A stretch of DNA of 59,372 nucleotides, filler included, from Sphacelaria rigidula (taxonomy: Eukaryota): assembly GCA_964200075.2 (NCBI GenBank). It is 9 parts of 9 records of this genome, joined end to end, with 100 filler letters (N's around TTAATTAATTAA, not from the genome) between each part and the next. Parts side by side here need not be neighbours in the genome. Positions count along the whole stretch, not along the records: positions 52,865 to 59,372 come from CAXNAA020019658.1; 8 more parts are not named here. One strand, 5' to 3'. The translations under genes were made by a program, and so were the position numbers. This document shows, one piece after another, positions 102-59,372 of this stretch (the stretch's first letter is position 1; the number at the start of each line of letters is the position of its first letter). The notes beneath the pieces are model-generated. The model was given only the letters and a program-made list of their open reading frames with translations. It ran no database searches and was not told the origin of the DNA.

Positions 102-342
102 TGGTACTGGGCTTGGCAACGGCTCGAAAAAAGACAGACAGTGAGAGCACCCTTTTCTGTAAATAAACCAGGAGGGTACACCCTGCTCTGCTTAAAAATG
201 ATTTCTTAACCTTTGCACTCCTTGTGGACCAGTTGAAAATGGTAACCCGTTTTTCGGTTTGGAGCGCGGCGCTGTGCTGCACGCGGATTGAACATGTCGA
301 AAGCACGTTGCATCGCCTCAGGCCCATGCACAAGGTGTCTGA

Positions 343-1033
343 GCAGCATGCCCGACCATTTATTTTCATTTTCACACGTAGTACTAGGCTTGACTACGGC
401 GCGGAAAAGGACAGCCAGTGAGAGTAGTACCCTATTTTGTAAACAAACCAGGAGGGTACATCCTTCTCTCTGGTAAGAAATTATCTCTCACTCGTGTTTG
501 TGCACGTGTCGACGCCGGCCTTAGCAACTCATGAAGGTTCAAGGAGGATGTGTAATGTCGTTCGAGCGTGTGTCGACAGGATTTTTCACGCATGTTCCTT
601 GGACCTTTGTGAGCTCCAGCACATAAGTGTTCGCGTACTATATGCTGCACCATCGGATTCCCTGGGAAATAGAGGTCTACGGGTAAACCAGCAGGGGGCT
701 ACATTTGATCTCGGCCGTTCTGTTTTTGACGACCTTTTCGGCGGGGTGTAATTCACAAAAGAAGTGGGTGTGGTTGTGATTGTTCGGCGGATATTCCGCA
801 TAGCCGGCGGTACGGTCACCACTTTACAAAAAATGGTGAAGAAGGGTTTTTACTTGAACATGAAAGGGTCCACACGTGCACGGAAAAGGGTAAGAAGAGA
901 TTATTATTCAGCAGAGGAGTGTGTATCCTCCTGGTTTGGGTACAAAAAAAGGCATTCTCATTGGCTGTCCTTTTCTGCGCCGTAGTTAAGTCTAGTACCG
1001 CGTGAAAATAAAAACAAATGGTCGGGCATACTG
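343..1033. mobile_element. Foldback/MITE-like element with ~165-bp imperfect terminal inverted repeats; a further partial arm lies at ~101-207
   Basis: GCAGCATGCCCGACCATTT...GTAGTACTAGGCTTGACTACGGCGCGGAAAAGGACAGCCA at 343-510 is matched in reverse complement at ~875-1033. No TSD seen. Confidence 0.6.
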
Positions 1034-2745
1034 CCAAGCCACGTTGGGCGTGGAGCTGAGGTGCTAGACATTGTTTTCCAGGTGTTCAGTCGGCGTGCAG
1101 CGCCACGCCCCAAACCAAAAAATGCGTTCCTATTTTTGTTCCAAAAGCCCGAGGGTGTACCTTATTTTGTATATTGCCCAGGAATCTCGCCGCTTCGTTC
1201 TCGGAGGAGTCTAAGCGCAGAGTCCGAAAACTCCGGAAAAAAATGATATCTCCGAAAAAAACATCGTCGATAATAATGGGCTTAACATTGGGGCTTTGTT
1301 TTCAGTTAACCAGAGGATGATAACTTATATTCAGTCAAGATTACGTTCAGGTTTTCAGACAGCTCATAGTCTCCAACACTCGCCCCTCCTGTGCGCAGCA
1401 AACGTTTTGGCTGGAATCGGAGCCAAAATAAGACAAACTTCCTTGGGGGCACTATGTGCGCCTCCCTTGCCCGCGAGGACCCCCTCAGTCTACCGCAGGT
1501 TAGGGTTTAGCTTCGGAATAGCGTGACGGTTGACGAGAATAAAATTTGTTCAACCATCAACCATCAACCATCGGATATCTGAGCCGAACTTGGACAAACC
1601 CGCCTCATAATGACACAATATGTACACGAGATATCTTCTGTTCTCACCCAATGGACGGTAGCCGCGGTACTTGCATTTAGTAAAACTGTTTTCCATAAGC
1701 CACACTGTCGTGACTGCGTAGCATGAAGTCGTTTGCCGTTCACCAATATAACTGTCTCGTTGGCACCGCACCCGATGTTGGGGCGGGCGGACCTGCGTAC
1801 GTGTGTGTTCTCCGTTGCAGTCTCCATTATGGCCATGACCCCAAACTCACCCAGCCCGCTACTGACGGTACTTGGGCAAGCACTATCAAATCAGTTCAAC
1901 CCAACTTTGAACCAGTTTTTTTCATGTGGGGTTTCGATCATGGATCGCAGACGTTCGCCAGATCCATCATCAAGCGCCATGCAACAGTGGAGCGTAAGTT
2001 TGTCGTGTGTCACTCTACCTGGACGCAACTTCTGGCTGCCATAGTGGTCCGTGCTTGGATTAGCACGCGCTGGATACAGCACTCGTAGTCGCTCGTCAAC
2101 GTTGAAATCGACGTGGTCGCTGTTGTAGTAGACTATTCATACTTAGTCAGTTGCTTGGCCAGGAATTTAGCGATCAGTCCCATCGAGAGAGGGGAGTGGC
2201 TCACGAACCCGCGGGGTACGCGGTCACTAATGAGGCAATATACATATTACCAGCCCTCAGACCCCGTGCTCTTGAACGGAAGGCTTTTGGGTGGGAAATG
2301 AGGGACGGCAGAACTAAGCAGATGATATGACTGCTTGCGCTCAGATCAAAACATGTTCCATTCGAACCAGCTGGCACCAGTTCCGACAGGCAAATGCTCT
2401 GTCCTATTGCTTCTTACGTGCAACTGATTGCTCTGCCTCATGTTAATCCTTGATCATTCCCACCGCGGCCTCGCTGCTGCATTCATCCCGGCGTTCATGC
2501 ATCATGCCCACGACACGAAAAAAAACAGGTTAGAGATCTGTGTGCGGTAACGCGACGACCAAGCACATTTTTTTCGCCCAGGCTTTGTCACCAGCGACCA
2601 CGGTGAACTGATACATGACGAGCGCCTCCACCAACTTTTTCCTCAGCCTCAACTCCTCCGTGTACGAACCCACGGAGCCCACTTCCCCGCAAGCCTGAAA
2701 GCGCAACCATGACCCTACCTGTACCGACGACAGCGATTTTACCGT

Positions 2746-3461
2746 CAAGGTCTGTCGAGGGAAAAGTTTCGGACACGTAGCCCCCCCCCCCCCCTCCCCC
2801 CTCCCGGATGCTCCGTCTCGAAAGGGATGCGTGGTCAACGGTCACACGACTAAGGTAAGCAACAAATTAGTACGCGCCCCCACCCCTCCCGGAGGGCAAG
2901 TTTTCGAAAATTGTCATGCTTTTGACGTTTTGTGTTTGTAATTGTTTTGTGATTTTTTTTCATTGGTTGTTGACATTGGTTGTTGAAATTGATCAACAAA
3001 CACTGACAAAACCCGCAAAGTCTGGCGCGCTTTGCGAGATTTGCTTTTGCTCCTTGTCCGCCCTGTCCCGATGACCTCGGATGCCGGTAACGCTCACACA
3101 TATATATGTACAATACACGACCGCACGGTAGCGACAGCCTGTAGCCAAAATAGCAACATTATCCCACGCCTCGCCAAATTTGCCCGGACTACTAGTGGGT
3201 GGTAGCCGAGGCACACGACACGAGAGATAATCCCATAAATGCGTTCATGGTAGGTGATAAGCTTGGAGGAGCGGTGTGTCCTTCATCTCAGCGGTCTCCA
3301 TGCCAAGGTTCTCTGTACACGGCAGCTGACCGCACCCGCCGACGCCTCGGCAGTAAACTAGGGGACAGCGGGCTGGGTATCCCCCCCCCCCTCCCCTCAA
3401 AAACTCGAATCTTCGATCTTGAGGCCTACGTGTCTCGAAATATATTTTTGACAGACCCTTG
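2746..3461. mobile_element. Non-autonomous DNA transposon with CAAGG(G)TCTGTC TIRs and an apparent 2-bp TSD (GT); second copy at 6204-6508, cut by the contig end
   Basis: Left end CAAGGTCTGTC...TTTCGGACACGTAGC versus right-end reverse complement CAAGGGTCTGTC...TTTCGAGACACGTAGGC. GT lies on both sides. Clear paralogue at 6204-6508. Confidence 0.7.
2809..2874 (+). mobile_element. Short C-tailed retroposon-like element (family A)
   Basis: TGCTCCGTCTCGAAAGGGATGCG...AGTACG, flanked by a direct repeat (C)nTCCCGGA. Absent from the paralogous host site at ~6241-6256. Confidence 0.75.
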
Positions 3462-4236
3462 GTCAACCTTACGATAATCTGCACAGCGTGGACCGACGAC
3501 TACCATACCTCGGGGCCTGCATCAGGCGGCGCCAGCTCCAACAGCAGCGCAGGCATCGGCGTCGACGGTACGGGTGAAAACCTATCGGCTGCTGTACCGA
3601 CCGCTGGGCCTACGGCGGCCCCACCGCTGCCGCTGCTTGTAAATGCGACAGAGCCCTCGGCCATACCGTCGCTCCTAGCAAAGCTTCCACGGCGTCGCCC
3701 ATCGAGGCCGATCCCATGAGGTGTCACAGCTCGAACATCACCGACGCGGGAGACCGCACGGGGGTGTACCTGGTCAACGATACCTACGCGAACGACCGGC
3801 CGATCTACACCATGACCGAGTCTTCTCCTCTTCCATGAACGCCTGCACCAGGAACTGGAGCGTCGTGAACGCCACATGGGCCGAGAACGCGAGCCCACTG
3901 GACACCGGTTCTACAGCTCGCCAGATCTTTCTTTACTACCTAGCGACGGCCGATTTCGATGTCGGACCCCACGCGTGCTCGACTGACGTTTGGTATGTGG
4001 CACCTGGCGGCGTGAGCAATATGGGGCAGGCATTGGGGCATACGTTCTTCTCCCTGTCAAGTGAAGAAGATCCCTCGGACGTGAAGTCGTGGGCTAGGTT
4101 TATCCCGGGAAATGACACGGGGAGGGCCATCATTCAACGGACCGCTTGGATCAACGTTGGTTGTGCGCAGTAGGTGCAAACGACGGAGACGCTGAGAGTC
4201 CCTTGGTTCTCGTGGAGGGTGTGCGGGCGGCGGTGG

Positions 4237-4288
<52 letters not shown>

Positions 4289-4290
<2 letters not shown>

Positions 4291-6608: not shown

Positions 6609-6894
6609 TCCCCTCCCCATCCAAATGGCGCCGCCCTTCATCTGCACAATATAGCGGAGCTAATAACAGTTCTCCCCCCCCCCCCCCCCCCCCTCCCCCT
6701 CCTTTGTGCAAATATTATTCAACAGTTTATACCGGCAACCCCGATAGCGCACACGAAAATTCAACCCTAATGAACGGCCAAATATAAAGTGGACATTGCT
6801 GCGGGGTTATGAGAAACATGAAATACGTCATAGTGTCGAACTGTCAGTTGAACGGCGGTAATGGGACGGTGGGGGGTATATGGATAATTTGCTG

Positions 6895-7481: not shown

Positions 7482-7915
7482 GAGTCATCCTACGATAGGG
7501 GGGGGGGGGGGGGGCGAAGCTTCCTTTACTATGTTTCCTATGCCTGTACATCAACATCCACTCCNNNNNNNNNNGCGGGGGTGCCGCGGTGCCGGGGGGC
7601 GCGTGGTGGGCGGGGGGGGGCGTACTCATTTGTTGCTTGCCTTAGTCGTTTGACCATTGACCACGCATCCCTTTCGAGACGGAGCGGGGGTGTTTGGTTG
7701 CCCGAAAAAAGGAGGCTCATTGGTGCGTCAGACGACCTGCCACACTCGCTGTGTGCTTGAATTCGGTTTCAAGCGGTGCCAAGCAGTACAAATAAATGTT
7801 ATTCATTCATAGCAAGCTCGCTCGAACAAGCATTGCTGCTTTCAACGCCAAATTGACTAGGAACTTCGTGCGAGAAGTGGCCCAAAACACCCCCCCCTCT
7901 ATCGTAGGATAAGTC
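7482..7915. mobile_element. MITE with GA(G/C)N5CTACGATAG termini and 4-bp TSD AAAT; carries a family A insertion at 7621-7685
   Basis: GAGTCATCCTACGATAG(G)n ... (C)nTCTATCGTAGGATAAGTC. AAAT at 7478-7481 and 7916-7919. Confidence 0.7.
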
Positions 7916-21358: not shown

Positions 21359-22467
21359 CGAATTCCATCTCGTTTCATTTCTTGTCTTCGGACATGTGGT
21401 ACTACTCTTCTCTTACTTTACTGCTTCAGGCAACAACGCCTGAATAGAGAGGTGGAACGCGATCTTGTCGACCCCCCTGCTTTCCTCACCTACTACAGTC
21501 TACGGATACCTCAAGTTTGGTTTTCCCTGTGGCCGGCGAGTCAATGTGACCAACACGCCTCCATGTACCGTCATGCTCGCCCAGTTTGAATTGCCATTTT
21601 AATTATCAAAACTTGGACCGCGAGGGTAGCCTATCTGGATCATGCATATTTTTCTCCAAGTGAAATTGATGCCAATTCAACAGTGCCCTTCCTACCCTCG
21701 TCATCCAGAGGTTAACGGACAATGAAATGGCTCAATTTGGTCAGTAAAACGTCGTCAAGTTGGCGAATTCTTTCGGTGAATCGTACGGGCTGGGGGGGGG
21801 GAAGGGAAAATTTATTCTCGCACTGCAAAAAGGGACAAATCCAGGGGGATTGAAAACGAACATCTGCCAAATCTTCACCTTCCTGTCACCAAGAGTTTCG
21901 TCGTGGACTCGAATTTTATTGAACCCATGGATTCGCTTCTCGGCGAACGGTTACCAGCTACCTGCATTTCCTGAAACGGTCCAATACTCGCAAAATCGAA
22001 AACTTCCCGTATTGCTTTCGTGGGGGAAAAAGAATACCGATATTATCCCGCTCGTTCCGAGTATATCTTTTGCGTCCTTACTTCATCCACAGCCGGCAAA
22101 TAGACACGATCTTCGTGTACGAAAACGCCTCCGTCGGTTTTCGAAATTTCGAATCTTACGACCCGACGGCACAAATGCCCCAAAACCAATCGCCGCAACA
22201 AAACAAAACGTGTCCCAAACTTTCCCCCTCCTCACCCTCTGTTCACTACCCATCTCTTCGAACAGATCAAATGAGTCCTTGCAGATAAGATCTCCGTCAT
22301 ACGACGAACGGTGAGATTTCATAGCCCTTCTCCCGTGACGCAACACCACACACGCTCACAAAAAACACATATTTATTCAACAAGCAGGTACACCCAAACG
22401 ATCGGGCACATTGTTTCAGGGTATGTGTGTGCAGCAGCGCGCGGGGCGGCGGAGGGGGGGGGGGGAT

Positions 22468-22572
22468 ATACTCGTGATCTTGCATGCCGTACTAGAGAGA
22501 CCATTGACCTCGCATCCCCACGACGCTGAGACGGAGCACGCCGGGTTTCGCCGGACCAGGCTCGTGATCACC
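22468..22572 (-). mobile_element. Truncated family B (long C-tailed) element
   Basis: G-run followed by ATACTCGTGATCTTGCATGCC...GACCATTGACCTCGCATCCC...GAGACGGAGCACGCCGGGTTTCG. Confidence 0.65.
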
Positions 22573-23112: not shown

Positions 23113-23377
23113 GACACTTTCTACGATAGCCCCCCCCCCCCCAAAAAAAAAACCCAGCTAAAAGTGTCACGAAAAAAATGGTCATACAGCGCCTGATATT
23201 CGGCTTCAGGCTGCATGAAGCGCCTCGTATTGGCGACATTGGCTAGAACGAACCCAAGCGTGGGGATTTCCAGCTTCTCGTTGTGCCCGACTTTTCCCAT
23301 TTCGATTCATGTGAAGATTTTGCCTCCCAAAACCATGCACTTTTTTTTGGGGAGGGGGGGCTATCGTAGAAAGTGTC
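23113..23377. mobile_element. MITE with GACACTTTCTACGATAG TIR and 4-bp TSD TTCA, inside the rpl12 intron
   Basis: TSD at 23109-23112 and 23378-23381. Inverted relative to the 20296 copy. Confidence 0.9.
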
Positions 23378-23714
23378 TTCACCACGCTTCGACTCGCTCG
23401 GTTTTGAACAATCGAGCTCAAGTGCCCCTTCCCCCTCACACCCTTCAAAGGTTGGCGTCGCTTGGAAACAACGCTGTACAACACACTACTCAATGCGTAA
23501 GTTCGGCAAGTAGCTTAACGGTCATCTTCTCGATTGCGTTTTTTGGCGGTAACCATGACGAACAATGCTTTCGTGAGATTGAGAGTAGTAGGGGATACGA
23601 TTGGGAGTGGGAAGCGGTCAATTAATGCGTGAATAGTTTCAGTTCCGAAATGCCCGTCCACAAGGCCCAATACGCTTTGTGTAGTAGCTTGCCGCTGAAG
23701 CCCTTGATATCTCT

Positions 23715-24220
23715 GAGTAACCCGTGGCTGTCTCTAGAAGTTGATTTTCCAAAAAATTAAGCAACTCATCGTAGGCTGTCATCCAAATGCAAGATAAATA
23801 GTATGCTTCGGGCCGAACAATCTCAGCAGAATGCAGATCACCCCTCATGAGACTCGCAGAACACACCACAGCGCTTCGCGCTCAGTGACTACGAGTCTGG
23901 TCCCGCGAAAACCCGGCGTGCTCCGTCCCGGCTTTGGAGGTGTGCAGGGTCAATGGTCATATGACTACGACACGTAGGATCATGAGTACACCCCCCGCCC
24001 CTTCCGTCTCGACAGGGATAGGTGGTCAATGGCCAAACAACTGAGGCAAGCATAAAATGAGTACGTCCCGAAGCGTACTAATTATCTCGCATATGGATGA
24101 CAGCCTTTACTGGGTTGCTTCATTTTCTAGTATCACCACGTCCAGAGAGGGGCTCATCCTAAGAGGGGAGGGGGGGGGGTACTCATGATCATGCATGCCA
24201 TAGTCATAACACCATTGTTC
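23715..24220. mobile_element. Cluster of family B and A elements: B (+, ~23715-23990), A (+, ~24003-24065) and B fragments (-, ~24067-24220)
   Basis: Similar to 53338-53714. Units end ATGAGTAC next to C-runs or G-runs. Confidence 0.65.
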
Positions 24221-25193: not shown

Positions 25194-27357
25194 CTGCGCG
25201 TGTGATGGGAAACAAAGAAAATGAACACACAAGGTCCTGCAAATCAACTGGTTAACTGTTCATTATTTCGACTGTGGTGTCTCGAAACATGGGCCTCCTT
25301 TATATACTCAGTAGAATTTGTCCCAGCTCATCTACGATGTACTCGTTGTTAATATTGCTTGATCCGAGGGTGAACACCGAGACTCGGATCTTAAGTCGGA
25401 CTGGCAGTTTTGAGTGCTCCTAGCTTGCGCAGAACGCGTGTTTGTCCAAATCAGCGTCGCAGGCGCCGATTCAAGGTCCACCAATGCAACTTTTATCTAG
25501 GGAATTCCTTGCACTGCCTCTACCCGAGGGTTCTCGATATGCCTTGGATCAGGGTAGGGGTCGTGATCGACACGAATGTCAGACCTTGTGGACTTTTTTT
25601 GAAGATTTTCCGACTTTTCCGGGAAAAAATGCTGAAAAAAATCGAACGCCAGACTTTCCGTGTAATATGCAGTCAGTCTTGAGCCTTAGACAGCGACCCC
25701 CCCGCTGGTAGACTGAGGTAGACACTACACTTTTTGGACTCATAATCATTCCTTTGTCCCAACTCAAAACCCCTACTCTACGGTGGAAGAGGCCGGGAGT
25801 GCATAAGAGGTACATAGTTGCGTCGAAACACAGACGGTGGTGTCGTTGTCGACCACCTGATTATTACGCCTCATATATTGCTGTGCTGCCTGTAGTGTAT
25901 CGTGCCGCGCGGTTGCACGTGCGGTCTGCAGCGTACTAGATCTTACAGTGTTGAACGTGCCGAGTGTAATCAGTATGCGCTTGGATATGGCACCATGACT
26001 ACCGCCGCGAACGCCCGTGACTACCGTAGAGCAATTGCTCGGCGGTGGCGGTCGCTCACCGTTGAAGTACTTGTCTACATCTACGTGCGTCGGGTACTCG
26101 TGGCCGCCGCTCGCGTGTTGCGCCATGTCGTTTGATACCAGATGGAGGTGCGGAGCTAGTACGACGCTCATGCAGTACTGAACAGACGGACACGACAGTG
26201 TACCCAAGATGCTCAAACACCTGCGTGTTGGTTATATCATCTATGGTTGATTAGGAGTGATCAAAATGGGTTATGAGGGTAGACAGCGAATGTGTTTACC
26301 AGGTATCTACCTCTACCGTAACAAAAGTGCTCNNNNNNNNNNNNNNNNNNNNNNNNNNNNNNNNNNNNNNNNNNNNTTAATTAATTAANNNNNNNNNNNN
26401 NNNNNNNNNNNNNNNNNNNNNNNNNNNNNNNNGCGGGGGGCTTATGCGTGCCCCCCCCCCCCGTTGATCAGCCGCAAGACCCTTAAGGCAAGCAAAAATC
26501 GGAAGCCCCCCCCCCCCCCCCCTCCCTTCGCCCTTGAATTCCTCATCCCAAAACGAACGCACGCCCGTACTGTACATACGCACACATGCAATCTAAAAAA
26601 AGTCGAAAACTCGAGGCCTCGTGGCTAGAATAGATCGCCTAGAGGTCCGCATCGAAAAGCAGCAGAAGAGGGACAAGAAGAGCCGCGTGCTGGCGGCGAA
26701 GGCCATGCTGAAACGACGCTCGGCCGCGGCGCGGCAAGATGGTAATCCAGCCCGGGCCGGACGGAGGATAGCCCATGTGAGACGTGTAATGTGGATGATT
26801 GATCCATTGGTTGATACAGAATATGTAGTACTGCACTGGAATGGCGCGTACATCAACGTATGTATGCTGCTTGGAAAGAGTCCGCAGTCGCAAGAGATCA
26901 ACCCCACTCACCCCTAGTTAAGCAGCGTACTTTCGCTTCGTCCCACTGCACAATCTCGAAACTTCTTTTATCTCTTCTATTTTCTTCTCTTTTCTTTTCT
27001 TAGACTACTCTATTTGTGTGTTTATAGCCTCTACTAGACGCTCTGGACAAGAGAACTATCAACGAGCGACTCCTCCAGTAGCACTGGCCTCGTGCTCGAC
27101 AAGTCCTTTCTTCTAACTTTTTATTATTGCGGAGTGATCCTCAACAGACCATATCACACGCCAGGCAGCAAGGGTCCCCACAGATACGGGCCATCTATAC
27201 AAGATCCCCAGTCCCCTGCCACTACTCCAATCATACGTGCGATTATACTAAAACCTACGGCTTGGTATCATTTGGCTACAGCACCCTCAGAGCGAGTTCA
27301 TGACAAACGAACGAGCTTGACAACCAAAAAAACCAAGGCGAAATCCCACGCGCCAGA

Positions 27358-28132: not shown

Positions 28133-29370
28133 TAGGCTTTAGTTCCGTATGCGCGCATTAAGCTTGGCTTAATTTCGTTTTTTTAGCTTAAATAGGCCTG
28201 TTTAGCGCAAAGCTTATAATCGGCTTAATACGCTTGAAACGAGCTTAACTTGCTTGAAGCGCGCATAAAACGCGCATAAAGTTGCGGATTGTTTTGCTCG
28301 CGAGCGCTCCATGCGGCGTAACTCGTCACCAGACAGCCGACAAGCGTCAGGCTTTAGGCTCGAACCCTCAATACTTCAAATTTCCATGGTCATGTTCCGT
28401 GTTCCTATTCTGTTGCGGGTCTGATGAGCAGACTACTCAATTTTATATTTAATACACACGGTACTATGTTGCTTTCGAAAATGTGACTAGATTCAAAACA
28501 AATATACACTTGTACTTTGTGCAGCAGACAGCAGACAGCAGTAGTAACAGCAGCACAACAGAGAGAAGTGATATCAAGTGATGACAGCGTTTGTAACTCA
28601 CGAGGTCATGGCGGACCTACTGTCCGAGAAGGACGACCTTTTGGTTGCGGCCTCAGGCGCGCCCTCGGAGTACTGTTTGCTGTCATTTTGAGATGACAAG
28701 AAGAACAGGCTTCCCAGTTGGTATCTTACGGCGATAAATATTGTACTTACTCAGCCGTCGTCTGCGTCTATGGAGCGAGTGCTTTCGATTTTGAGGGGGT
28801 GCTTGAACTCCCCGCAGAAGAAGGCGTTTACCGGCTCGAATTTGCAGTTATGATGAAGTACAATCGGTACCGGTAGTTCGACAAGATTTTGAATTTCGAC
28901 TGACGGTTAATAATGCAGGGGGGAGGTTGTGGTAGCTTGAAGCCTGTAGCTTGCCGGGCGAGAGGCCAAAGGCTGCAATGCCCTGTGTCTAGAGGCTACA
29001 ATGCCGTACTGCTGTATCAAGTATTGCAAGTGTAGTGTCATTTGTTGTTTCCGCACGTGGGTTTGGGTGTAGGTGTGCAGGTTGTTGTCTCCAACCTCAA
29101 TAACTGAAGAAAAGCTTCATTTTTTTATTTTAAATAGTCAACAAAACGTCGAATGCCCGACTTGTCGTCTTCTCCTCATGCTAGAAGGCGCGCCTCGTGA
29201 GGGGATACTGCCACAACCCCACGACAAGGACGGGAATAAGGCGCATAAAACGCGCCTAATTTGCGCTAAAACAGCTTAAAACGGGGCCAAAAACAAAAAT
29301 AAAAAACTTATTGTAAAAAAAAATGGAGCATAATTTCAAGAAAAAAGCGCGCATACGGAACTAAAGCCTA
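28133..29370 (+). mobile_element. hAT DNA transposon (non-autonomous) nested in the Gypsy integrase
   Basis: 24-bp perfect TIR TAGGCTTTAGTTCCGTATGCGCGC. Perfect 8-bp TSD ATGCAGAC at 28125-28132 and 29371-29378. Confidence 0.93.
28671..28876 (+). pseudogene. hAT transposase C-terminal dimerisation-domain remnant
   Basis: LSF*DDKKNRLPSWYLTAINIVLTQPSSASMERVLS, then after a frameshift RLEFAVMMKYNR. This matches the hAT W...P......P.SSA..ER.FS motif. Confidence 0.8.
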
Positions 29371-29378
29371 ATGCAGAC

Positions 29379-29965
29379 ACCGGTCGTCTCTGTTTCGACA
29401 AAATGGATCGCAACGCACGAATAACCTCTTTCACCATGTGTTCACAAGCATCATTTGACCAAGGGGTATACGCAACAGCAAATTGGTGCTGCACCTTGAG
29501 CGCGTCGCTCAGCTGCGCGATCACTCGGTTCTTGAAGTGCGTGGCGGTATCCCTAACCCACACACGCGGCACCCTCAAAGTCTTGCACCAATGGAGCAAG
29601 GGCTTAGCCGTTACCTCGGCGGTGCGAGCCTCGGTCGGCTCCAAGCAAACGAAATTGGACAAATCATCCATGGTGACCAAAATATACCGAAAACCATCCT
29701 CATCAGGGGAACCATTAGCACCTTCAGGTCCGCTACTTCCGACGTACAGAAAATCGAAGTGAACAACTTCACCATGCACAGTATCGCCATACGGACGAGG
29801 TACAATTGCACCAGCACGAGTGTCTACACAACGCAAACACTGGCGAACGAACTCGCGAACGTGGGAATCCATGTGAGGTCACACCCAGTATTCTTTCAAA
29901 CGGAACAGAGTCGGCGCCACCCCACGGTGACCAGCCGACCGCATGTGAGCGCACACCATCAAGCG
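29379..29965 (-). pseudogene. Gypsy integrase zinc finger and catalytic core
   Basis: ORF 29336..29872 plus upstream HMRSAGHRG, which is separated by a stop. Confidence 0.9.
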
Positions 29966-32427: not shown

Positions 32428-32861
32428 GTATACATAAACAGGCGCTTGTGATGGCAATCAAATGATTATTGGTTCATGAACAGCCAGGGTCAAATGATGT
32501 CTCATCCGTTCCATTCGTGCTGTGGTTGCAGCCTTCTGGGCCCCTGTCGGAGGGGAATCTCCTGCTACTTCAGCCGTTGTCTAGTCTAGTGTTTCTGGCA
32601 GTTTGGATGTGTTTGGCTTTCTCTTCGTGTTCTCCTCGCTTGTTGTTTTGTGTTGTTTTGTGTCTCACAATCCAATCCTCTCGGAACCGGAACCTTTCCG
32701 ACGCAAACCCTGCCTGTTTTCCGAAAGGTTGATCGGCAGTGTTTTACGCCCAAGATAGATGTTACATGCCACGAAGAATATGAAGAAAGAACAGAACGAA
32801 AAAAACACATATCGTTGATGAGCATGTACACTCAAGACTTCTACCGTCTCTCTCGCTCTCC

Positions 32862-32899
<38 letters not shown>

Positions 32900-49500: not shown

Positions 49501-52500
49501 TCTGGTCCCTGTCCGGATTGTGTTATGGTAGGTTCATGGAGACGGATGATTAGCTTTTTCATTTCATGTCTATGTCTGTGTTGTGGTATGGTACATGAAA
49601 GGATGCGAATGGTAAGCTTCTCATTCCATGTTTATCTCTGGCCTGTTTTATTGAAGTCAGAGAGGAAAGATGGTACGCTTCGTCATTCCATGTCGATGTC
49701 TGGACTGTGCTATGGTAGGATAACTGAAGAGGATAGTCAGCCTCTCCATTTCATGTGTTTATCCGGGCTGTGTCATGGTAAGTTAAAAACAGAGGATGGT
49801 CAGCTTTTTTTGCATGTTTATGTCAGGGCTGTACCATGATAGGTTGAAAAAAAGGAAGAATAGCCTTTTTTTCATTCTTATGTCCGGGCTGTGTTATGGT
49901 AGGTCAAAGAAAAAGGATGGTTATGTTCTTCGTTTCATATCTATGTCTGGGCTGTGTTACGATAGGTGAAGTAAACGGTAGGTTATCTTCTTCATTTCGT
50001 GTCTATGTCTGGGTCATGTTATGGTACGTGGAAAAAAAAGGATGTTGAGCGTCCTCGTTCCATGTCTATCGCTGGGTCATGTTATGGTAGGTTCAAGAAG
50101 AAGAGGGTTAGCTTCCCCATCCCTTATCCATATCTGGGCTGTTTTTTGGTGGGTTAAATTGAAAAAACGGTTACCTTCGTCATCGCATGTCTTTGTTCGT
50201 GCCGTGTGATGGTAGGATAGAAAAGGAGGACGGTATGCTTTATTTTGATGTCTTACCGGGCTGTGTCATCATAGGTAAAAGAAAGAGGATGATGAGCTCC
50301 TTCTTTCAATTGTAATGTCCGGCCATAAACTCGTAGGTGAGAGAACAAGGATGGTTACCTTCTTTATTTTCGTCCGGGCTGTGTGATGGTAGAATGAGGG
50401 GAAAGGGGTGGTTCGCTTCATTACTTGATGAGCTTCTCTATATTGATGTCTGTCTGGGCTGTGTCACCGTAGGATGAAAGAAGGAGGTGATTAGCTTCCA
50501 TATTTCATATCTATGTCTGGGCTGTGTTAGGGTACTTTAATGGAGAAGGATGGTTATCTTCTTAATTGTAAGTCTATGTCTGGGCTGTGCTATGGTACTT
50601 TCATGGAAGTGTATCTTCTATATTTTATGGTACGTGAGAGGGTGTCTGGGTTAAATTATGGTACGTGGAAGGAAAAGGATGGTTAGCTTCGCCATTTCAT
50701 GTCTATGCCTGAGCTGTGCTATGGTAGGTTAAGGAGAAGAACTGCTTAGGTTCGGCATTCCATGTCCATGTTCGTGCTGTGTGATGGGAGAGTGAAGAAA
50801 GAGGGTGGCTAGCTTTTTTTCTTTGATGTATGTCCGTGCTGTACCACGAGTACCATCGGTGAGAGACAAAGGACGGTGAGCTTCCTATTTCCATTTTCGA
50901 CACTTTCTACGATAGCCCCCTCCCTAAACCAGCCAAAAGTGGCACGAAAAAATGGTCATGTAGCGCCTGATGTTTGGGTTCAAGCCGCATGAAGTGCCTC
51001 ATAGTGGCGACGTTGACGAGAACAAACCCAAGTGTGGGAACTCCCAGCTGCTTGTTGTGCTTGACTTTTCCCATTTCGATTTACGTGAAGATATTGCCTC
51101 CCCAAACCATGCACTTTTTTGAGGGGGGGCTATCGTAGAAAGTGTCGTTCATGTCCGGGCTATGTTCTGGTGGGTTGAAAAAAATGATGCTTAGCTTCCT
51201 CATTTCATGTCTATGTCCAGGCTGCGTTATGGTAGATGAAAAAAAGAGAATGGCCAGCTTTTCTTTTTCATGTCTATATCCGGGCTGTGTGATGGTAGGT
51301 GAGAGAAAAAAATGGTCAGCCTCCTCATTTCATGTCTATGTCCGGGCTGTGTAATGGTGCGTTCGGGAAAAAGGGTGGTTGATTTTGTTTCTCCAATGTT
51401 TTGTTTGGGATGTGTTATGGTACGTGATTGAACAAGGATGGTCAGCTTCCTACTTCCATGTCTACGTCTGGGCTGTGTTCTGTTAGATTGAAGAGAAAGG
51501 ATGGGGTTCTTCGTCATTCCATGTCTATATCCGGCCTGCGTTACGGTAGCTTATAGATAAAAGAGGGCTACCTTCCACATTCCATGTCCTCGTGTGGGCT
51601 TGGTTTTGGTAGGTTAAAGAGAAAGGATGATGGGTTTCTCTAGTTAATGTCGATGTCCGGGCCGTGTGATGGTAGGTAAAAGAACGAGGATGGTTAGCTT
51701 CGTAATTTCAAATTTGTGTCCGGGCTGTGTTATGGTGTGTTTGGGGAAGAGGGTGGTTAGCTTCGTCCCTCTATGTCTATACCTGAGCTGTGTCATGGTA
51801 GATGGAAAAAAAGGAATGGCTATCTTCTTCATTTCATGTGTATGTCTGTGCTATGTTACAGTAGGTCACAGAGAAAAGATGGTTCGGATTTTCATTTCAT
51901 GTCTGTCTGGGCTCTGTTATGGTAGGTGGAAACAAAGACGAGGAGCTTCTTGATTTCATGGCTGTCAGGGCTACGTTACGGTAGGTTGAACATGAAGGGT
52001 GTTAGCTTCTCTATTTTATGTCTATGTCCGAGCTGTCTTATGGTAGGTTGAAGGAAAATGATGGTTAGCTTCCGTTTTCAATGTCTATGTCTTGGCTGTG
52101 TGATGGTGGGTTAAAGGGAAAAGATGGTTAGTTTTACAATTCCATTTGAATGTCTATGCTGTCTTATGGTAGTTCGAAGAAAAAAAATGGTTAGCTTGTT
52201 AGTTTGACGTCTATGTCCGGGCTGTGTCACCATAGGTGAGAGACAAAGGACGGTGATGAGCTTGTTGTTTCCATGTTCATTTCCGAGCTATGTTCCGGTA
52301 GGTTGAAGATAAAGGATGGTTAGCTTTTTAGTTTGATGTCCATGTCCGGGCTGTGTTATGGTAGGTTGAAGAGAAAATGTGGCGGGCTTCTCTAGTTCAT
52401 GTCTATGTCCGGGCCGTGTTATGGTAGGTATAAGAAACAGAATAGGTAGCTTCTTGATTTCACGTCTATGTCTGGGCTGTGTTATGGTGCATTTTGGAAA

Positions 52501-52676
52501 ACGTATGGTTGGCTTCTCTTTTTCATGTCTGTGTCAGGGATGTGTCATGATGGGTGGAAAAAAGATGGTTGTATTTTTGATTTCATGTCTACGTCTAGGC
52601 TGTGTTATGGTAGGTTAGAGAGAAAATATTGGTGAGTCTTTAATATCATGTCTGTCCGGGCCGTTTTATTGTAGGC
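46532..52676. repeat. Diverged ~63-bp tandem satellite (~90+ units) with a ~1.95-kb higher-order duplication
   Basis: Approximate consensus ATGTCTATGTCYGGGCTGTGTTATGGTAGGTTGAAGAAAAAGGATGGTTAGCTTCYTCATTYC. Unit starts near 47405, 47468, 47531, 47593 and 47656. Block 46532-47260 recurs at ~48481-49240. Confidence 0.95.
50899..51146. mobile_element. GACACTTTCTACGATAG MITE inserted in the satellite
   Basis: Perfect 17-bp TIR. TSD TTTC/GTTC has one mismatch. Confidence 0.88.
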
Positions 52677-52764
52677 GAGTCATGCTACGATAGGGGGTAC
52701 TCATGATCATGCATGCCATAATCATCAGACCATTGACCTCGCATCCCTACAATACCGGGACGGA
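52677..52764 (-). mobile_element. GAGTCATGCTACGATAG MITE end with a family B element at its G-run
   Basis: TIR start as at 7482, then GGGGGTACTCATGATCATGCATGCC...GACCATTGACCTCGCATCCC. Cut by the contig end. Confidence 0.6.
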
Positions 52765-52888
52765 NNNNNNNNNNNNNNNNNNNNNNNNNNNNNNNNNNNN
52801 NNNNNNNNTTAATTAATTAANNNNNNNNNNNNNNNNNNNNNNNNNNNNNNNNNNNNNNNNNNNNATCGGAACGGCTTTTAATGTGAAG

Positions 52889-52938
<50 letters not shown>
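52889..52938. repeat. (CAA)n microsatellite
   Basis: Seen directly in the sequence. Confidence 0.95.
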
Positions 52939-52939
<1 letters not shown>

Positions 52940-53184
52940 GAGTGCAAACATCTCAGGATCAAAGTGTAACGAAAAATTAGTTCTCCCTCCGTCCAACGTG
53001 GTGTCGCGCAACTTTTTTTCCCGTGAGGTGTCTTTTTCTTTTTTCATTAATTCTGCACCCTGATCCTGAGATATTTGCACTCTGAAATGACCAAAATGCT
53101 CTCTAATAAGTGACTGCACATCGCGATGTCTCTCTGGCTTCCCCACAATCTGCCCTCTGTTTTATTTTTCGTGTGTGTCTTCAG

Positions 53185-53310
53185 GCGCGAAATCGATCCA
53201 AGGCGGCGGCGATGCTCGGTGGCGGAGGCAAAGGGATGGCTGATGCGGGCTTGGATCTGGTGGTGGGGGATATCTGCGATATGTCGTCGCTCCGACCCGC
53301 ATTATTTAAG
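53185..53310 (+). CDS. NAD(P)-binding Rossmann-fold / CIA30-family protein (At4g18810/UOS1-like), exon
   Basis: ARNRSKAAAMLG...LDLVVGDICDMSSLRPALFK. TCAG acceptor and AAG|GTGGGT donor, phase 0. Confidence 0.85.
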
Positions 53311-53337
53311 GTGGGTGGATGGGGGGAAGGGCCGGGT

Positions 53338-53714
53338 GTACTCATGGTCTTGCATGCCACAGTCAGAAGACCATTGACCTCGCATCCGTACAAAGCCGGG
53401 ATGGAGCACGCCAGGTTTTCGGCGGGCCGGGCTCGCAATCAATCACCAAGCGCGAAGTGCCGTGATGTGTTCGGCGAGTCGCATGAAGGGTGAGCTGCAT
53501 CCTGCTAAGAAAGTTCGGCCCAAAGCCTACTGATTATCTTGCGTTTGGATGTTAGTCTCCCATGCGTTGCTTCATTTTCTAGTATCGCCACTCCCAGAGA
53601 CAGCCACGGGTTACACTGCCTCATCAAGATAACAGGGGGAGGGAGGGGGCGTCTTCATTTGTTGCTTGCCTCAGTCGTTTGACCGTTGACCACTCCTCCC
53701 TTTGGAGGCGAAGC
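53338..53714 (-). mobile_element. Near full-length family B element (~53338-53625) followed by a family A element (53650-53714); partial B at ~53807-53950
   Basis: Both units begin, on the + strand, with a G-rich tract followed by GTACTCAT-like sequence and GACC(A/G)TTGACC. Confidence 0.7.
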
Positions 53715-54482
53715 GCCGTTCCTACTCCTGATAGAGACACCCCCAACGTTCCGGCGCTCATTGTGTTCCTGTCGACATTACACGAAAACCTTTTACATAT
53801 CTCATAAAGGGTGAGCTGCATCCTACTAAGATCGCTCGGCCCAAAACGTACTGATAATCTTGTGTATGCATGGCCGCCTCCCATGCGTTGCTTCTTTTTC
53901 TGGTGTCGACACTTCCAGAGACAGTCACGGGTTACACTACCTCATTAAGTTAGGGGGCGGGGGATCGTGGGGGAGGTATGTTGGGTGGATCACGGTCCTA
54001 GAACACCTACACGCGACAGGCACCGTGTCGCCTAGAATGTCGCCTAGAATGTTCCTCGTGGACAGGATGTACCGTTACCTCGAGTCATTGTCCATTCCCG
54101 TCACAAACACCGTTGTGTTGATGGATTGAAAGGGAGCCGTTTTTTGGGTTGTTTAACATGCTGGAGAAAAAGGGGTATTTTTTTCCGTGAGAGTACAATA
54201 TACTCCCCTAGAGGATCCAGATGCATCTCTATCCGTTGGATCGGTGATTATTTTCACCCCTGGAGAATGACCTGTAGACTACTCCGGTGTCCATCTTTAG
54301 GCGCTCGAAGAGTTGAATGCGAGAGATGCCTTGAGTTTGTACTGACTCGTGGATATACGGAGTGTCGTCGCTTAGTGTCGGTGGAGCATGCTGTTTCCGT
54401 TGGAGAAATACATGTTTTTTGCGGTGAAGCGAGTGCTGTCTTCTGGGTATTATCAACTAAACTATTTTCCCCCTCCGAAATA

Positions 54483-54548
54483 TGCTCCGTCTCGAAAAGG
54501 ATGCGTGTTCCATGGTCAAACGACTAAGGCAAGCAACAAGTGAGTACG
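54483..54548 (+). mobile_element. Family A element with a 13-14-bp TSD CCCCT(C/A)CGAAATA(T)
   Basis: TSD at 54470-54482 and 54549-54561. Confidence 0.8.
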
Positions 54549-55142
54549 CCCCTACGAAATATCTGAATTTTTTCAACCCCGGATAAAGATGTGGTCAATT
54601 GTTGCGATAGAACATAATTGCACTATATCAATTTCAATACCGGGGAGAGATGGGCTGATCCTTTGAGACACAACGGACTCGTCCGGAGAAATGGGAGGGG
54701 TTCAAAGTGCGACAAATCAAGGAATGACAAAATAAAAATCAAGTATAGGGCCTATTGCAATACGCCTATATTTGGTTTACGCCGAGGCTAGAATCAATAT
54801 GCCTTTACTCTAGGCAGTACAGTCTTTTCTATCTCAACCTTTGTTTACATTTGTCCATGTTGTGGAATATTTCGGGAAAATAACAGCTTTTTCTCCGACA
54901 TAATGTGGGTGAAGATTTGTTTTCACCCTGTTGGACAATAGATCAATTCAAGACTGACTTCAGATTTCTCCGAAAAATTTGGCGTGGGATTTTAGTTCAG
55001 CGTTTTGTACTGGGATCAGTCGGGTGAAACTGACACCACATTAGGTCGGGGAAAACGTGGGTTCGATACCCGCCATTTTTTTTTTCTATTTTTCGTTTCT
55101 ATTTTATTTGTCGCCCTTTGAACCCCCCCCCCCTTCCTCGGT

Positions 55143-55212
55143 TGCTCCGTCTCGAAAGGGATGCGTGGTCAATGGTCAAATGACTAAGGCAAGCAACGAA
55201 TGAATGAGTACG
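55143..55212 (+). mobile_element. Family A element with TSD (C)11-12TTCCTCGG
   Basis: TSD at 55123-55141 and 55213-55232. Confidence 0.8.
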
Positions 55213-55918
55213 CCCCCCCCCCCCTTCCTCGGGATGAGTCCGCGGTCTAACAGTCTCAAGGGATCAACCCACCTCTCCCCCGGTACACGCCTTTCATTTT
55301 TGTCTCGCGGATTGGGTCATGACTATCAGCACTCCCGCACCGCGTCAACTCACGTCGAACAAACTAAAGTCAACAACTGCCAGATGCGTCTAGTTTCAAT
55401 CTCTTTGTTCTTGGACCCAACTGATTTCACTCTTCGCAAAAAGAGTATGTGTGGCTGATTTTGTTTTTGACGAGAGTTGACGCCATCCGGGAGAGTGCTG
55501 ATGGTCATGATCCACTCCGCGATGCCGCTTTCCGGGGGAGGTATTGGGTTGATCCCGTCAGACCACGGTCTCGTCCCCAGGAAGGGTAAGGGTTTCAACC
55601 CTTTTTGGATCAGACTCCCAACCACCAGCGGTTAACTCACCCCTGGTGTGCACGCAGGGTCCATCAATGTGAATCGGAATATTTTTCACTCGTTTTCAAG
55701 TGAAAATGATTCCGATTCACCGAGGGCTCCCTCACCCCCGGCTAGTCCACTCCGGTCCCAAAAGGGTTGAGGTGTGAGATGTGACGTGAAAAAATAAGAA
55801 AAAAATTGACGCATGATGCTGGTGAAGTGTTTTTTCACAAGCACTTTGTCTCGCTGGCCAACTGTCGTCTGTCCGTCTCTCTGCACCCATGCCCCCCCCC
55901 TCCCCCACTCCGACGCAG

Positions 55919-56026
55919 GACGTTGCTGCAGTTGTGTCGTGTACGGCTGCTATCGTCAGACCAACGGAGGGAGACGGACCCGACAGGGGCAAATATTTCC
56001 AGGGCATCAAGTTTTACGAACCGGAG
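55919..56026 (+). CDS. NAD(P)-binding / CIA30-family protein, next exon
   Basis: DVAAVVSCTAAIVRPTEGDGPDRGKYFQGIKFYEPE matches, from recall, the cyanobacterial/plant family motif P.EGDT.DR.KY.QG.KF..PE. CGCAG acceptor and GAG|GTGAAA donor. Confidence 0.88.
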
Positions 56027-59000
56027 GTGAAATCTCGATGTACGGTATGCTTTTGGAAGGGTTTTGATGTCTTCTACCAAAATCTAAATATATCTCATAC
56101 GGTTTGGGTGATAAGAATGGTTGACGGGAATATAGTGGTGAATGGGAACAGGATGGGGTGGGTGGAGTGGTTGATTTTGATCAACGGGTCTGACGAGAGG
56201 GTTGGGATGAGATTGGGTTGGTTCTGGGTGGTTGTTGGACGTTTTTTGTTTTGTTTTGGACAAGAGCAGCACATGAAGAAGGTCGCGTAACAAACGATTT
56301 GTTTGCGCAGGCAGTGTGCTGATGGAAGAGTAGTGAACAGCCATTCTTGAGTTCTCACCCTTCGACGAGGAAGATTTTGAAATATTTACTGCGAAAGCAC
56401 CCGTACCGTGAAAGTCAAGTCGCAAACGCGTACTTTGGTACACTTCATGAACTCACCGGATAATGACTTGTTGGCCATCAAAGGACCAAGCAACAACACC
56501 CCATTCACAGACATATTACAACGGGGGAGCTCAATGTCGGTACAGGCTGCTTCACGCGTTCGACCCCAAATCCACTCATCCGCAAATGTTCACCCCGATT
56601 CTTGGAGTCAGACTCTGAAAAGTTGCACAAATACGGGCTGGGCCGGCCTAGACGCGAATTTGTGGTTCGCAGACCCTATCTCACCTCAATTTTGCGACTT
56701 GAACCTTGAAATTTCGTACGGAGGAAGAATTGGGCATATGCTGAAACGCTGTCGACGGAACGTGTAATTTTTTTTCGAGAGTTTAGGGCAATAATCAGTA
56801 CCTAGTTATCGGGAAAATGCCGTCATCTCACGAAAAAAACAAACACGTCCCGATTGACAGTGTTTTAAGATGCCCTATTTTCCCTCCGTACCAAATTTCA
56901 AAGTCCAACTCGCAAAATTGAGGTAAGACGGGGCTATTAAGAAACCGGGCCGGGCGAAATTCGGAACAACATTTTCCAGGCCGTTTATCGGTCCAGATTT
57001 GGTGCTTGTGTTCTGCATGTTTTTGTGGGACCTCGCTAGGCCATAACCAACCAAAAATAGTGGAGAATACTGATATATATATATATATATATACATGTTT
57101 TTTCATTTGCTTAGAACGCTTTAGAATAGTAAATACCATATTCTCACGAGAAGGCCTGTATCTCTCTCACAAAAAAATGAAGGGCCCATATGTTTTTTTC
57201 CTCCGGCACGCGTTTGCAATTCTCCATGATAAGTTTCAGATCTCAATTCTTGATATTGAGCTGAAGACCCGAGAGCATTGTCGATTTTCCCTTGAATCTG
57301 CCCTGAGAAAAACAAAAATGAAGAAAAACGAAAAACGATGATTTTTTCCATTATGCACTACCGATTTTACACGCGAAAATTTCAAAGCACAGCTCGTAAA
57401 AACGGAGACGCAATATCCAGATTTAGTGCATTGAGTGCCTCTGCTCGAAATGCATTGGCTTTAGTATAGAACCTCATGTGCGCCATATCTCGAGGCAGAT
57501 AACGAATTAGGCAAAAGTGGAGGTAGCGATCGTCTCCCCGTGCTCCAGGGAATGTCCACACCAAAAATCGCCATCATCCGCTCTATATATTGTTTGATTT
57601 TTCATTCAGATTTTGGTATGGACGCTATCTCCGTACGGTATAAGAATGACTAGACATGGGATTTAATCGACGAGAAGAAATTGGCCCAGGCTTTTGAGCA
57701 CATGGGCACCTTCCCCTTGATCAGATGGCTAACACGATGTGCAGATCACGGCCCAATTTGTCTGTTTCGATGAGATTTTGCTATGAGAGCTTAAATCCGC
57801 ATCTAGGTCGACCCAGCTCGTATACCATGGGGCATTCCGAAACTTTCAAGTAATGGGGTTTCTCGATTTTTTATCCAACGGATCTCGGGAGTCCCAGGAT
57901 GCTGGGGAAATAATGCCATTCTTGGACCCCCGAAATCCAGAGAAAAAAACAAGAAACAAAGAAAGCCATTCGGTGAAGGTCCCGGAATGCCCCGTAGCAT
58001 ATATAGTGCAAAATTTTGGAGTCCGATTCCAAGAATCGGCGTGGACACTCGAGCTTTGTGCGACGAAGTGGGCTTGAAATCTTCAAACCGCTAGCTTACT
58101 CCATTTCAATATTGAAGCGGCTTTCCCGGGTACGCTTGGCGTCAATACGACCCCAGTGCATCAATTTTTTTAATTACGCAGCTATAGTTTCGTACACAAT
58201 CGTTCCTTGAACTCCGACGGGGACGCACAACTTTGTTTTATTTTTGTTTTTAGGCATACTCCGTACCGGCTTCCGGTGGTCTTGACACAGGGACCCCCGA
58301 AAGCCGGTAAAAAGGTTGAGAAAAAAAGGTTTTGTAATATTTTCAACATTCCAGTTTATCGACTTTGGAGCATCATTACCTGCCACACTGTCAAGTTTGA
58401 GGGTGGTCGAAGCTTACCGGCGACAGAAGACAAGGAGAACCGTCGGGAGCCTTTCTGGGTCCTTGGTGCATGTCATCTGTGGAAATCCGACGGCGTCAAA
58501 ACCCTACATCAACAAAGTACGACGATTTCGGGTATAACTCGATCTCATGGAAACCGTTTTCAGGAGTGCTTTTCCCGCTAGGTTCCCGAGCTGATAGTGG
58601 TTACTGCAATATACAGCACGCACAAGTTAGGTAAAAATTGGGTTGGGAATTCCGTTTTGAAATTCAGAACAGCATCAAGGCCGCTGATTCGTCGAGGTAC
58701 GTTCTCGCCCTTTTTGTCGCCCTTAGCGCCACCACTATGGTCTTGAACGAAATTTCGGCGTTGTCGCCCTCTTCTGCTGGTCATGGCGGTCAGTGTGATA
58801 CACCATGCGTGCCACAGTTGGGTAGGTATCTTTGAAGGAAGGCAGTTGCTGATGAGTGAATTTTGTGTGGAAAGCGTGAACCTGCCTGTGTAGATTTTGC
58901 GGAATGCTTGGCGCGCAGAAGCGGTGTCGTCCGCTACGAATCGACTTGTGTGTGTTCTTGAACCGCACAGGGTGAATGATGCACACTCTGGACAATGGAC

Positions 59001-59216
59001 ACAATAATAGTTCATTGCTTCAGCAATAGACACAGGGAAAAATTTATCGATCTATATTATCGAACACGATAGATGGTGAAAAACATCTGTTGATATGCAT
59101 TGCAAGGAACAACAGATGTTGCAATAGTCGATCGATAGGCTATGGCAATTACAATAAATGAAGATCACTCGCCATCGATGGAAATGGTGTATCGCAATAG
59201 ATTCTGGGTTGTATAT

Positions 59217-59372
59217 ATCGATAGCCATTGCCGTAATCAAAAGGTTTGGTGAGCCATCCATCGATAGTCATTGCCGTAATCAATAGGTTTCGTGAGCTAT
59301 CCATCGATAGTCATTGCCGTTATCAATAGGTTTGGTGAGCCATCCGTCGATAGCCATTGCCGTCATCAATAG
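59217..59372. repeat. 43-bp tandem minisatellite (>=3.6 units, runs off the contig end)
   Basis: ATCGATAG(C/T)CATTGCCGTAATCAATAGGTTTGGTGAGCCATCC repeated with period 43. Confidence 0.92.

Follow-up and report, generated by a model that had tools for sequence, protein, structure and literature searches.

Eel and zebrafish L2 LINEs (long interspersed nuclear elements) and their SINEs (short interspersed nuclear elements) carry a common stem-loop in the 3' tail, on which mobilisation depends and to which ORF2p binds, as described in two papers (PMC1636434, PMC4176376). Here, we describe a comparable arrangement in a stretch of 59,372 nucleotides (nt) from Sphacelaria rigidula (GenBank assembly GCA_964200075.2), called the window below, in which two repeat families, A (66 nt) and B (about 297 nt), end in related modules followed by a run of C; the interval under study is 53338–53714. 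Mammalian L1, with Alu and processed pseudogenes, represents the relaxed, tail-dependent type and provides another point of reference: a homopolymer tail meets the same homopolymer in the target, the duplications begin with an A-rich run, and insertions into older tails occur. Several insect R1-clade families and R4/Dong-like LINEs insert in simple repeats that match their own tail. The well-studied LINE cases use A tails or short tandem repeats, and we know of no polyadenylation-like route to a C tail. No C-tailed LINE is described in the open-access full-text literature that we searched (subscription papers, Repbase-type reports and repeat databases being outside its scope).

We find that family A is the last 66 nt of an AP-endonuclease-type retrotransposon without long terminal repeats (LTRs), that is, a LINE, and no free-standing RNA gene, and that the non-coding family B ends in a diverged homologue of it. 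What appeared to be an orphan RNA fold becomes a tail common to a LINE and a non-autonomous partner. We consider it very probable that this is the known kind of LINE/SINE shared 3' tail, in a C-tailed variant for which we propose recognition of the module and priming from a G-run.

The window consists of nine 6508-nt pieces with a linker every 6608 nt (N44 + TTAATTAATTAA + N44; e.g. 6509–6608 and 13117–13216), and adjacent pieces are not necessarily neighbours in the genome; the last piece (52865–59372, CAXNAA020019658.1) holds the interval. Repeats are frequent in this DNA, CA microsatellites among them, and its general look is eukaryotic; the public runs that contain the stretch carry labels that include algae, marine and protist metagenomes. 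Copies of the module were sought with a covariance model (R1) made from nine A rows, using the structure that the first-pass annotation of this DNA had proposed (a closing stem P1 and two hairpins, P2 and P3). Across the window and three fetched contigs, R1 found 15 copies, ten of type A (seven in the window, three in the contigs) and five of type B; nhmmer found 16 module copies.

The A module is the 3' end of a LINE

A pattern scan of metagenome contigs gave at least 120 loci; among those listed, real copies were present in two contigs only (L025 and L047), a third (L041) matched the 19-nt pattern alone, and the remaining loci were chance matches in unrelated contigs. The same kind of scan over genome contigs returned one locus, on a contig (L123) of a bacterial metagenome-assembled genome (MAG) that has a single copy. 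Viral contigs gave no match by DNA pattern and no confirmed relative by protein alignment, and a phage collection gave no match to the query. L025, L047 and L123 are 89–97% identical over 1.2–2.0 kb, and each ends in an A module followed by C8 to C13.

On L123, the sequence upstream of the tail is a single open reading frame (ORF) of 1382 codons (4261..113, minus strand), with Pfam matches to Exo_endo_phos (E 8e-11), Exo_endo_phos_2 (E 1e-7) and RVT_1 (E 7e-32). This frame crosses the A module, which encodes the last 20 codons, the stop and 5 nt more, after which the C13 run of L123 begins. The best PDB matches of the protein are the L1 ORF2p and R2 reverse transcriptases, which are equally strong, so they do not choose a clade; the nearest named LINE relatives are from Ectocarpus (48–71% identity) and bear no clade names. 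We also considered the C-run as the 5' G-head of an element on the opposite strand and rejected this, as the orientation of the ORF sets the run at the 3' end.

Inside the window, the A module at 53650–53715 (minus strand; R1 53648–53716, 83.1 bits) is the end of a longer LINE-derived 3' stretch that reaches to about 53805 (53650–53805) and is ~79–85% identical to the 3' ends of L025, L047 and L123 by blastn and local alignment. Because this copy runs on upstream as LINE sequence, A is not a self-contained gene made of a minimal module.

Two further features of the LINE were seen. Upstream of its ORF, at about 455–520 of the reverse complement of L123, lies a diverged, inverted A-like module that nhmmer does not report. 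In the LINE protein (P0002), residues ~35–100 on L123, ahead of the endonuclease, are conserved among relatives (alignment A7) and show an alternating hydrophobic pattern; judged from this pattern, the segment could be an RNA-binding domain.

Family B and the structure of the interval

The interval contains a full B element of ~297 nt at 53338–53634 on the minus strand, which is non-coding and SINE-like according to the alignments, with no Pfam match. Its 3' module (53338–53409), running from GUGCUCC to GAGUAC with potential for the P2 and P3 hairpins, is found by R1 at 53335–53409 (40.7 bits, E 4e-9), and reads into a C-rich tail at 53321–53337 (A, CCC, GG, CCC, TT and CCCCCC in the sense of the element). 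The 5' end, at 53634, abuts the C-rich tail of the element upstream (C5 T C3 T C5, 53635–53649, minus strand), which is the landing site of B and itself follows the A module at 53650–53715.

When the reverse complement of 53300–53760 was searched against the window, its last ~70 nt matched A copies at 72–76% identity (blastn) and its first ~125 nt proved to be an A copy with extra homology upstream. The same search returned B copies at the places that had been listed before, and R1, although built from A, recovered five B modules (53335–53409(−), 52694–52768(−), 23918–23992(+), 22465–22539(−) and 45351–45416(+)) with E values from 4e-9 to 0.04, so the earlier statement that B ends in a diverged homologue of A is borne out. 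B copies have a common non-coding body of ~297 nt with a fairly constant 5' end, and no ORF of at least 90 aa overlapping them matches a Pfam family. Besides the full element, blastn, the B alignment and R1 place a copy at 23717–23992(+), a 5'-truncated one at 22466–22570(−) with a C12 tail (22454–22465), and one at 45148–45410(+) that is without the last ~25 nt of the module. A 3' module at 52692–52764(−) is interrupted by the linker between pieces (blastn, R1), and a partial module at 24173–24217(−) has a C10 tail at 24170–24179 (blastn, nhmmer).

Upstream of the full B element, the alignments show a second B-type head. Reading the minus strand from 53961 to 53800, ~165 nt of B head pass into the last ~175 nt of the LINE across 6–7 letters that both have in common. 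This chimera ends in the A module and C5TC3TC5, and the complete B with its B-type module follows directly downstream. The interval would then consist of two retroposons head to tail on the minus strand, the chimera from 53961 to 53635 and the full B from 53634 to 53321. One head with two LINE-like tails is what is expected if the tail confers mobility.

Insertion sites, duplications and C tails

The flanks of the short A copies were read for traces of insertion. Direct repeats that begin with a C-run were present at 4/6 of these copies, and the full B copies have C-rich flanks on both sides. The copy at 55143–55212(+), which carries a 4-nt internal duplication and a C12 tail (55213–55224), lies between repeats of C11–12 + TTCCTCGG at 55123–55141 and 55213–55232. 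The one at 54483–54548(+) has C4–5 + T(C/A)CGAAATA at 54470 and 54549. On the minus strand, the copy at 4290–4353 is followed by a tail of 52 C (4238–4289; the whole feature spans 4238–4353); here C7 + GCCGCCA, all there is in the upstream flank, stands opposite C52 + GCCACCGC. Two more complete the set: 7612–7686(−), with a C9 tail, is 98.6% identical to the LINE tail of L025, and 23999–24067(+), which is ~3 nt shorter at the 5' end, sits directly on the C-rich tail of the B copy 23717–23992.

The copy at 2809–2874(+), with C-run + TCCCGGA in its flanks, has an empty counterpart. It lies in a repeat family (2700–2780 and 6170–6241, with common downstream sequence at 2893–2935 and 6256–6300) that has an internal C-run, one member being filled and the other empty. 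Because the empty paralogue (6242–6255) is uninterrupted and reads C8 + TCCCGG, the C-run predates the insertion. Tails are pure C-runs of 4 to 52 nt that can exceed the run of the target (52 versus 7), and no terminal A was found on any of them; the poly(A) tail of L1-type retroposition is replaced by poly(C). In three places, an element is found immediately on the tail of another (24001 on 23717, 53634 on 53649 and 24148 on 24170). In the window as a whole, C8 words number 214, in 31 runs, versus 2.3 ± 1.9 in shuffles.

Because the 3' end of the element abuts the right-hand repeat, the priming 3' end on a nicked bottom strand would be a G-run. Such an end can pair with the C tail, which fits target-primed reverse transcription from a nick in a G-run. 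L1 and Alu duplications, with their A-rich starts, have the same geometry.

A sharp 5' boundary in public sequencing runs

We matched the Logan contigs of four public runs to positions 1–600 of L123 at a likeness of at least 80%, which gave 42,067 to 79,663 matching contigs per DNA run and 3,630 in run X6. The latter was guessed to be RNA; it covers the LINE tail with the same boundary, and we do not take it as evidence of expression. On the tail side, the best-supported loose ends fall at 95–98 and continue as G-runs of at least 16 further letters. On the 5' side, position 173 (the first U of UGCUCC) has the most support as a loose end (434, 354, 394 and 67 contigs); beyond it comes one A and then a G-run, i.e. 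Cn, U, UGCUCC in the sense of the element. The short A copies of the window agree, with 4/6 starting at the U of UGCUCC, one starting 1 nt later and one ~3 nt later. Random 5' ends would have spoken against the first-pass annotation, and the contigs instead place the boundary at a single base in all four runs. Its statement that A copies begin at the 5' strand of P1 likewise holds, while the minimal folded module that it saw in A is the terminus of a LINE. Relative to the longest P1 helix open to the LINE (GUGCUC/GAGUAC), the observed end is set one base inwards.

Joints from 171–175 back to 95–102 (steps back of 72–81) occur in dozens of contigs per run (15 of 635 listed) and correspond to A-Cn-A units joined head to tail. 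Summed word depth, which is not a copy number, drops ~3-fold from 121–160 to 181–200 and ~60-fold by 221–240. Of the 178 letter differences, 40 are listed; 15 of these fall in 174–331 and a single one in the module, at 135, which is the final letter of the P3 loop. The sharp 5' end could stem from a discrete RNA, by way of a start site or processing, from a founder copy, or from a point at which the enzyme prefers to stop or jump. A second recurrent unit of 131 nt (the tail plus 118 nt; L123 95–225) was also noted, as exact pieces in three runs and as a joint from 225 to 95 in 1–3 contigs per run; it may be another class of discrete 5' end.

RNA fold and protein constraint on the module

For the fold, we used a model-guided alignment (A6), which replaced two MAFFT alignments (A1 and A2) that misplace the 5' part of B. 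Standard pairs make up 94% of cells in P2, 91% in P3 and 81% in P1. The P2 loop is GAAA in 8/10 A rows and 9–11 unrelated letters in B; for the P3 loop, A shows AAAU or AAAC, and B shows UUCU, UGAU, AUAU or UCUC. When the four full B modules are compared in pairs, they differ by 0.05 in P1 and by 0.18 in both P2 and P3, versus 0.67 in the loop of P3 and 0.78 in that of P2 (where the insert columns are arbitrarily aligned). As a description, the earlier observation that stems hold while loops vary is correct, as is the position of the closing-stem strand GAGUAC directly before the C-run. One-sided changes mostly keep the pair (U.G to C-G in four rows, G.U to A-U in one and G-C to G.U in one), P3 has one double change from U-A to C-G, and owing to four G.U pairs the fold is possible on the C-tail strand only. 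RNAalifold on A6 predicts P2, a 4-bp P3 and a 3-bp extension, with a covariation term of +0.1. Taken together with the points raised below, hairpins P2 and P3 are plausible and stem P1 is weak.

The module is also coding in the LINE. Among the LINE copies, it differs at 2/66 sites (3%), versus 11% in the 1.1 kb upstream (P about 0.02). In 20/110 relatives, a peptide island, G(C/R)VVNG, is kept 13–14 residues before the C-terminus (10–12 in 5/20); it holds down to ~40% identity and follows a hypervariable, low-complexity stretch rich in Cys and Gly. The island is encoded by an invariant core, GGAUGCG(U/A)GGUCAAUGGUC, which is also kept in the non-coding B. Judging from these sequences, we take the module for an element of RNA or DNA that is built into the ORF end, and a role at the protein level may come in as well.

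Mechanism and alternative explanations

We propose that the LINE protein recognises the terminal ~66-nt RNA element, in cis on its own RNA and in trans on the RNAs of B and of the tail-only units, the candidates for recognition being the invariant core and probably the P2 and P3 hairpins. The LINE endonuclease would nick the bottom strand where a G-run ends; the 3' end of that run would anneal to the C tail and prime reverse transcription, and a second nick 7–9 nt past the run would yield target-site duplications that start with the C-run. The C tails of older copies would act as targets in turn, giving chains of elements on tails and the A-Cn-A tandems. The earlier suggestion of a structure recognised by the reverse transcriptase stands in so far as the module is the 3' end of a LINE with endonuclease and reverse transcriptase, is borrowed by B and is found with duplications; its three-stem fold lacks proof by covariation, and recognition is a proposal.

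Several observations weigh against this account. Our picture of the full LINE is drawn from three contigs that are not part of the window (two from metagenomes and one from a bacterial MAG), and the sequence of the window organism upstream of the module is only ~80–85% identical to it. B is ~25% off A, and translation of its module in the LINE frame yields a peptide that resembles the C-termini of other LINE relatives, so from its sequence B's true partner may be another LINE family. The B head shows no tRNA, 5S or 7SL match (ARAGORN, 0 genes; Rfam at E ≤ 10 over 52865–55400), hence no Pol III head, and for this reason we call B SINE-like and not a strict SINE. As for the fold, pairing reaches 88.7% of cells versus 88.4 ± 0.6 in column shuffles (197/500 shuffles being as high), and two pairs changed on both sides, a number reached in 233/500 shuffles; with 14 distinct, closely related rows this test has little power. 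P1 is absent from the RNAalifold prediction on A6, folding energies of six sense-strand sequences are no better than those of dinucleotide shuffles (z −2.0 to +0.5), the minimum-energy fold of A closes by GCGUG/UACGC in place of P1, and in B a specific hairpin, AUGGUC/GAYCAU, competes with P3. Significant covariation did not emerge for P1, P2 or P3, and the conserved fold first suggested lacks statistical support. Junction J2/3, although unpaired, varies as little as the stems do (0.11 within B), which counts against a conserved fold as well, and since the module is coding, part of its conservation could lie at the protein level.

These last points are what one would expect if the RNA fold had no role, the module being kept for its C-terminal peptide, B having a fairly recent copy of it, and the C tail or a short linear motif being all that the enzyme needs; the island at a near-constant −13/−14 from the stop is in keeping with this. 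Yet B, which does not code, keeps the letters of the stems while both of its hairpin loops are replaced or scrambled, and the one-sided stem changes mostly keep the pair. An island that follows a hypervariable stretch at a fixed distance from the stop is also as expected of an RNA or DNA element embedded in the end of an ORF, and we regard a module without any fold role as unlikely.

The tail-only A units might instead be processed RNAs, cut at a specific site by self-cleavage or by a host endonuclease such as RNase P and given their C tail by a nucleotidyltransferase. The 5' boundary that is sharp at one base (in four runs and in 4/6 window copies) suits such a cut, as do tails that far exceed the run of the target and a P1 that would bring the 5' and 3' ends together. 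However, ARAGORN called no tRNA gene, and Rfam gave no match at gathering thresholds over the whole window, none at E ≤ 10 on L025 and L047 (their upstream LINE sequence included, with no ribozyme), and only four weak, irrelevant matches at E ≤ 10 over 52865–55400, none on A or B, so that tRNA, tRNA-like and self-cleaving ribozyme families are all without a match and the tRNA-acceptor-like module envisaged in the first-pass annotation finds no backing. Nor does its C tail added by a CC(A)-adding-type enzyme, as tails lack a terminal A, extend to 52 C and have their run already present in the targets and the empty site. The C-run is encoded in every DNA copy, so it is inheritable and can lengthen by slippage, and the observed 5' end falls inside the longest possible P1 helix, not at its edge. 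We judge this route very unlikely. The broader possibility that the 66-nt module exists as a discrete RNA, with a 5' end set by a site-specific cut of the LINE transcript and a C tail made or lengthened on the RNA, is in our view distinctly unlikely; if true, the LINE would have evolved a hyper-abundant, tail-only passenger, a C:G mirror image of the A:T logic of L1.

Spread of the A-Cn units at the DNA level, as a satellite arising by unequal crossing-over or replication slippage with no retroposition, would account for the head-to-tail joints in dozens of contigs per run, in a window rich in tandem repeats such as a 63-bp satellite. Against this, single copies are dispersed among unrelated flanks, each with direct repeats of its own, an empty paralogous site is present, and an element that encodes a reverse transcriptase has this very unit as its 3' end; we find a satellite origin extremely improbable. 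Tail-directed retroposition by a LINE, with B and the tail-only units as its passengers, is the account that we prefer.

Other features of the window

A Pfam scan of 136 of the 163 window ORFs of at least 90 aa gave one match only, a fragment of an rve integrase core at 29339–29878(−) (E 2e-7, slightly below the Pfam cut-off), which is probably a decayed LTR retrotransposon. The diverged 63-bp tandem satellite occupies about 46500–52700 in dozens of copies, and the same family is found at one end of L123 (~5130–5259), the contig that bears the LINE. An open frame of 711 codons at 42179–44311(+), in a 64% G+C island, is rich in Ala, Gly and Ser and gave no match in Pfam, so that it is a candidate gene at most.

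C-runs also occur in other settings. A repeat family of the form ...CTACGATAG + C7–13 + A-run + GTGCATGG is present at 20297–20335(+), 23113–23160(+), 20480–20515(−), 23340–23380(−) and 51110–51150(−). The repeat ending in ...CUACGAUAG + Cn + An was considered as a third C-tailed family and rejected, since the homology extends past the runs, which are therefore internal. Runs of C12 to C37 follow other short units or ends at 26451–26522(+), 37693–37760(−), 32800–32899(+), 6650–6693(+) and 7498–7560(−), which suggests further C-tailed families in the window. Between C12 and C17, a 43-nt unit (26463–26505) has TAAGGCAAGCAA in common with the A module. Adjoining the A insertion at 55143, a T-arm resembling that of a tRNA (GTGGGTTCGATACCCGC), with CA and then a run of T10 after it, lies at 55040–55085(+). 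ARAGORN called no tRNA there and Rfam gave only an 18-nt match to the end of tmRNA (E 0.42); the segment could be what is left of a SINE, or a piece derived from a tRNA.

Comparison with known systems

The closest parallels are LINE/SINE pairs of the stringent type, namely eel UnaL2/UnaSINE1 and zebrafish ZfL2-1 and ZfL2-2: there as here, a LINE with endonuclease and reverse transcriptase and a non-coding element end in the same ~60–70-nt, hairpin-capable sequence followed by a simple-repeat tail. The Sphacelaria system departs from these L2-clade pairs in that its tail is a homopolymer of C, not a short tandem repeat, and in that the module belongs to the ORF, whose stop codon precedes the tail by 5 nt, where theirs is in the 3' untranslated region. 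Its loops differ between LINE and SINE-like partner, whereas the ZfL2 work is reported to show loop-specific recognition; it also has a very abundant tail-only unit, unlike the L2-clade pairs.

In its insertions, the system resembles L1 and Alu, with a homopolymer tail, a matching run in the target, duplications that start with the run and insertions into older tails, and the best structural matches of its reverse transcriptase include L1 ORF2p. It differs in using C/G for A/T and in having a specific terminal module of ~66 nt that is common to the elements besides the tail. The repeat-targeting R1-clade and R4/Dong-like LINEs are alike in that the target matches their own tail, but their targets are di- to tetranucleotide repeats, whereas here a mononucleotide C/G run is used and a very abundant tail-only unit is present. 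Three features are uncommon: a C-homopolymer tail with duplications starting with the C-run, pointing to reverse transcription primed by a G-run; a candidate recognition module inside the end of an ORF, so that one stretch would be under both protein and RNA constraint; and a tail-only unit of 66 nt with a sharp 5' end and tandems, matched in each DNA run by contigs in the tens of thousands. Should the C-tail logic prove right, it would account for the surplus of C/G homopolymers that this genome shows, and the system would offer a natural comparison for how LINEs couple tail recognition, the choice of the nick site and priming. LINE relatives in Ectocarpus and marine assemblies are 48–91% identical in protein from the reverse transcriptase to the C-terminus, and in them, too, the C-terminal peptide island is present and equally far from the stop.

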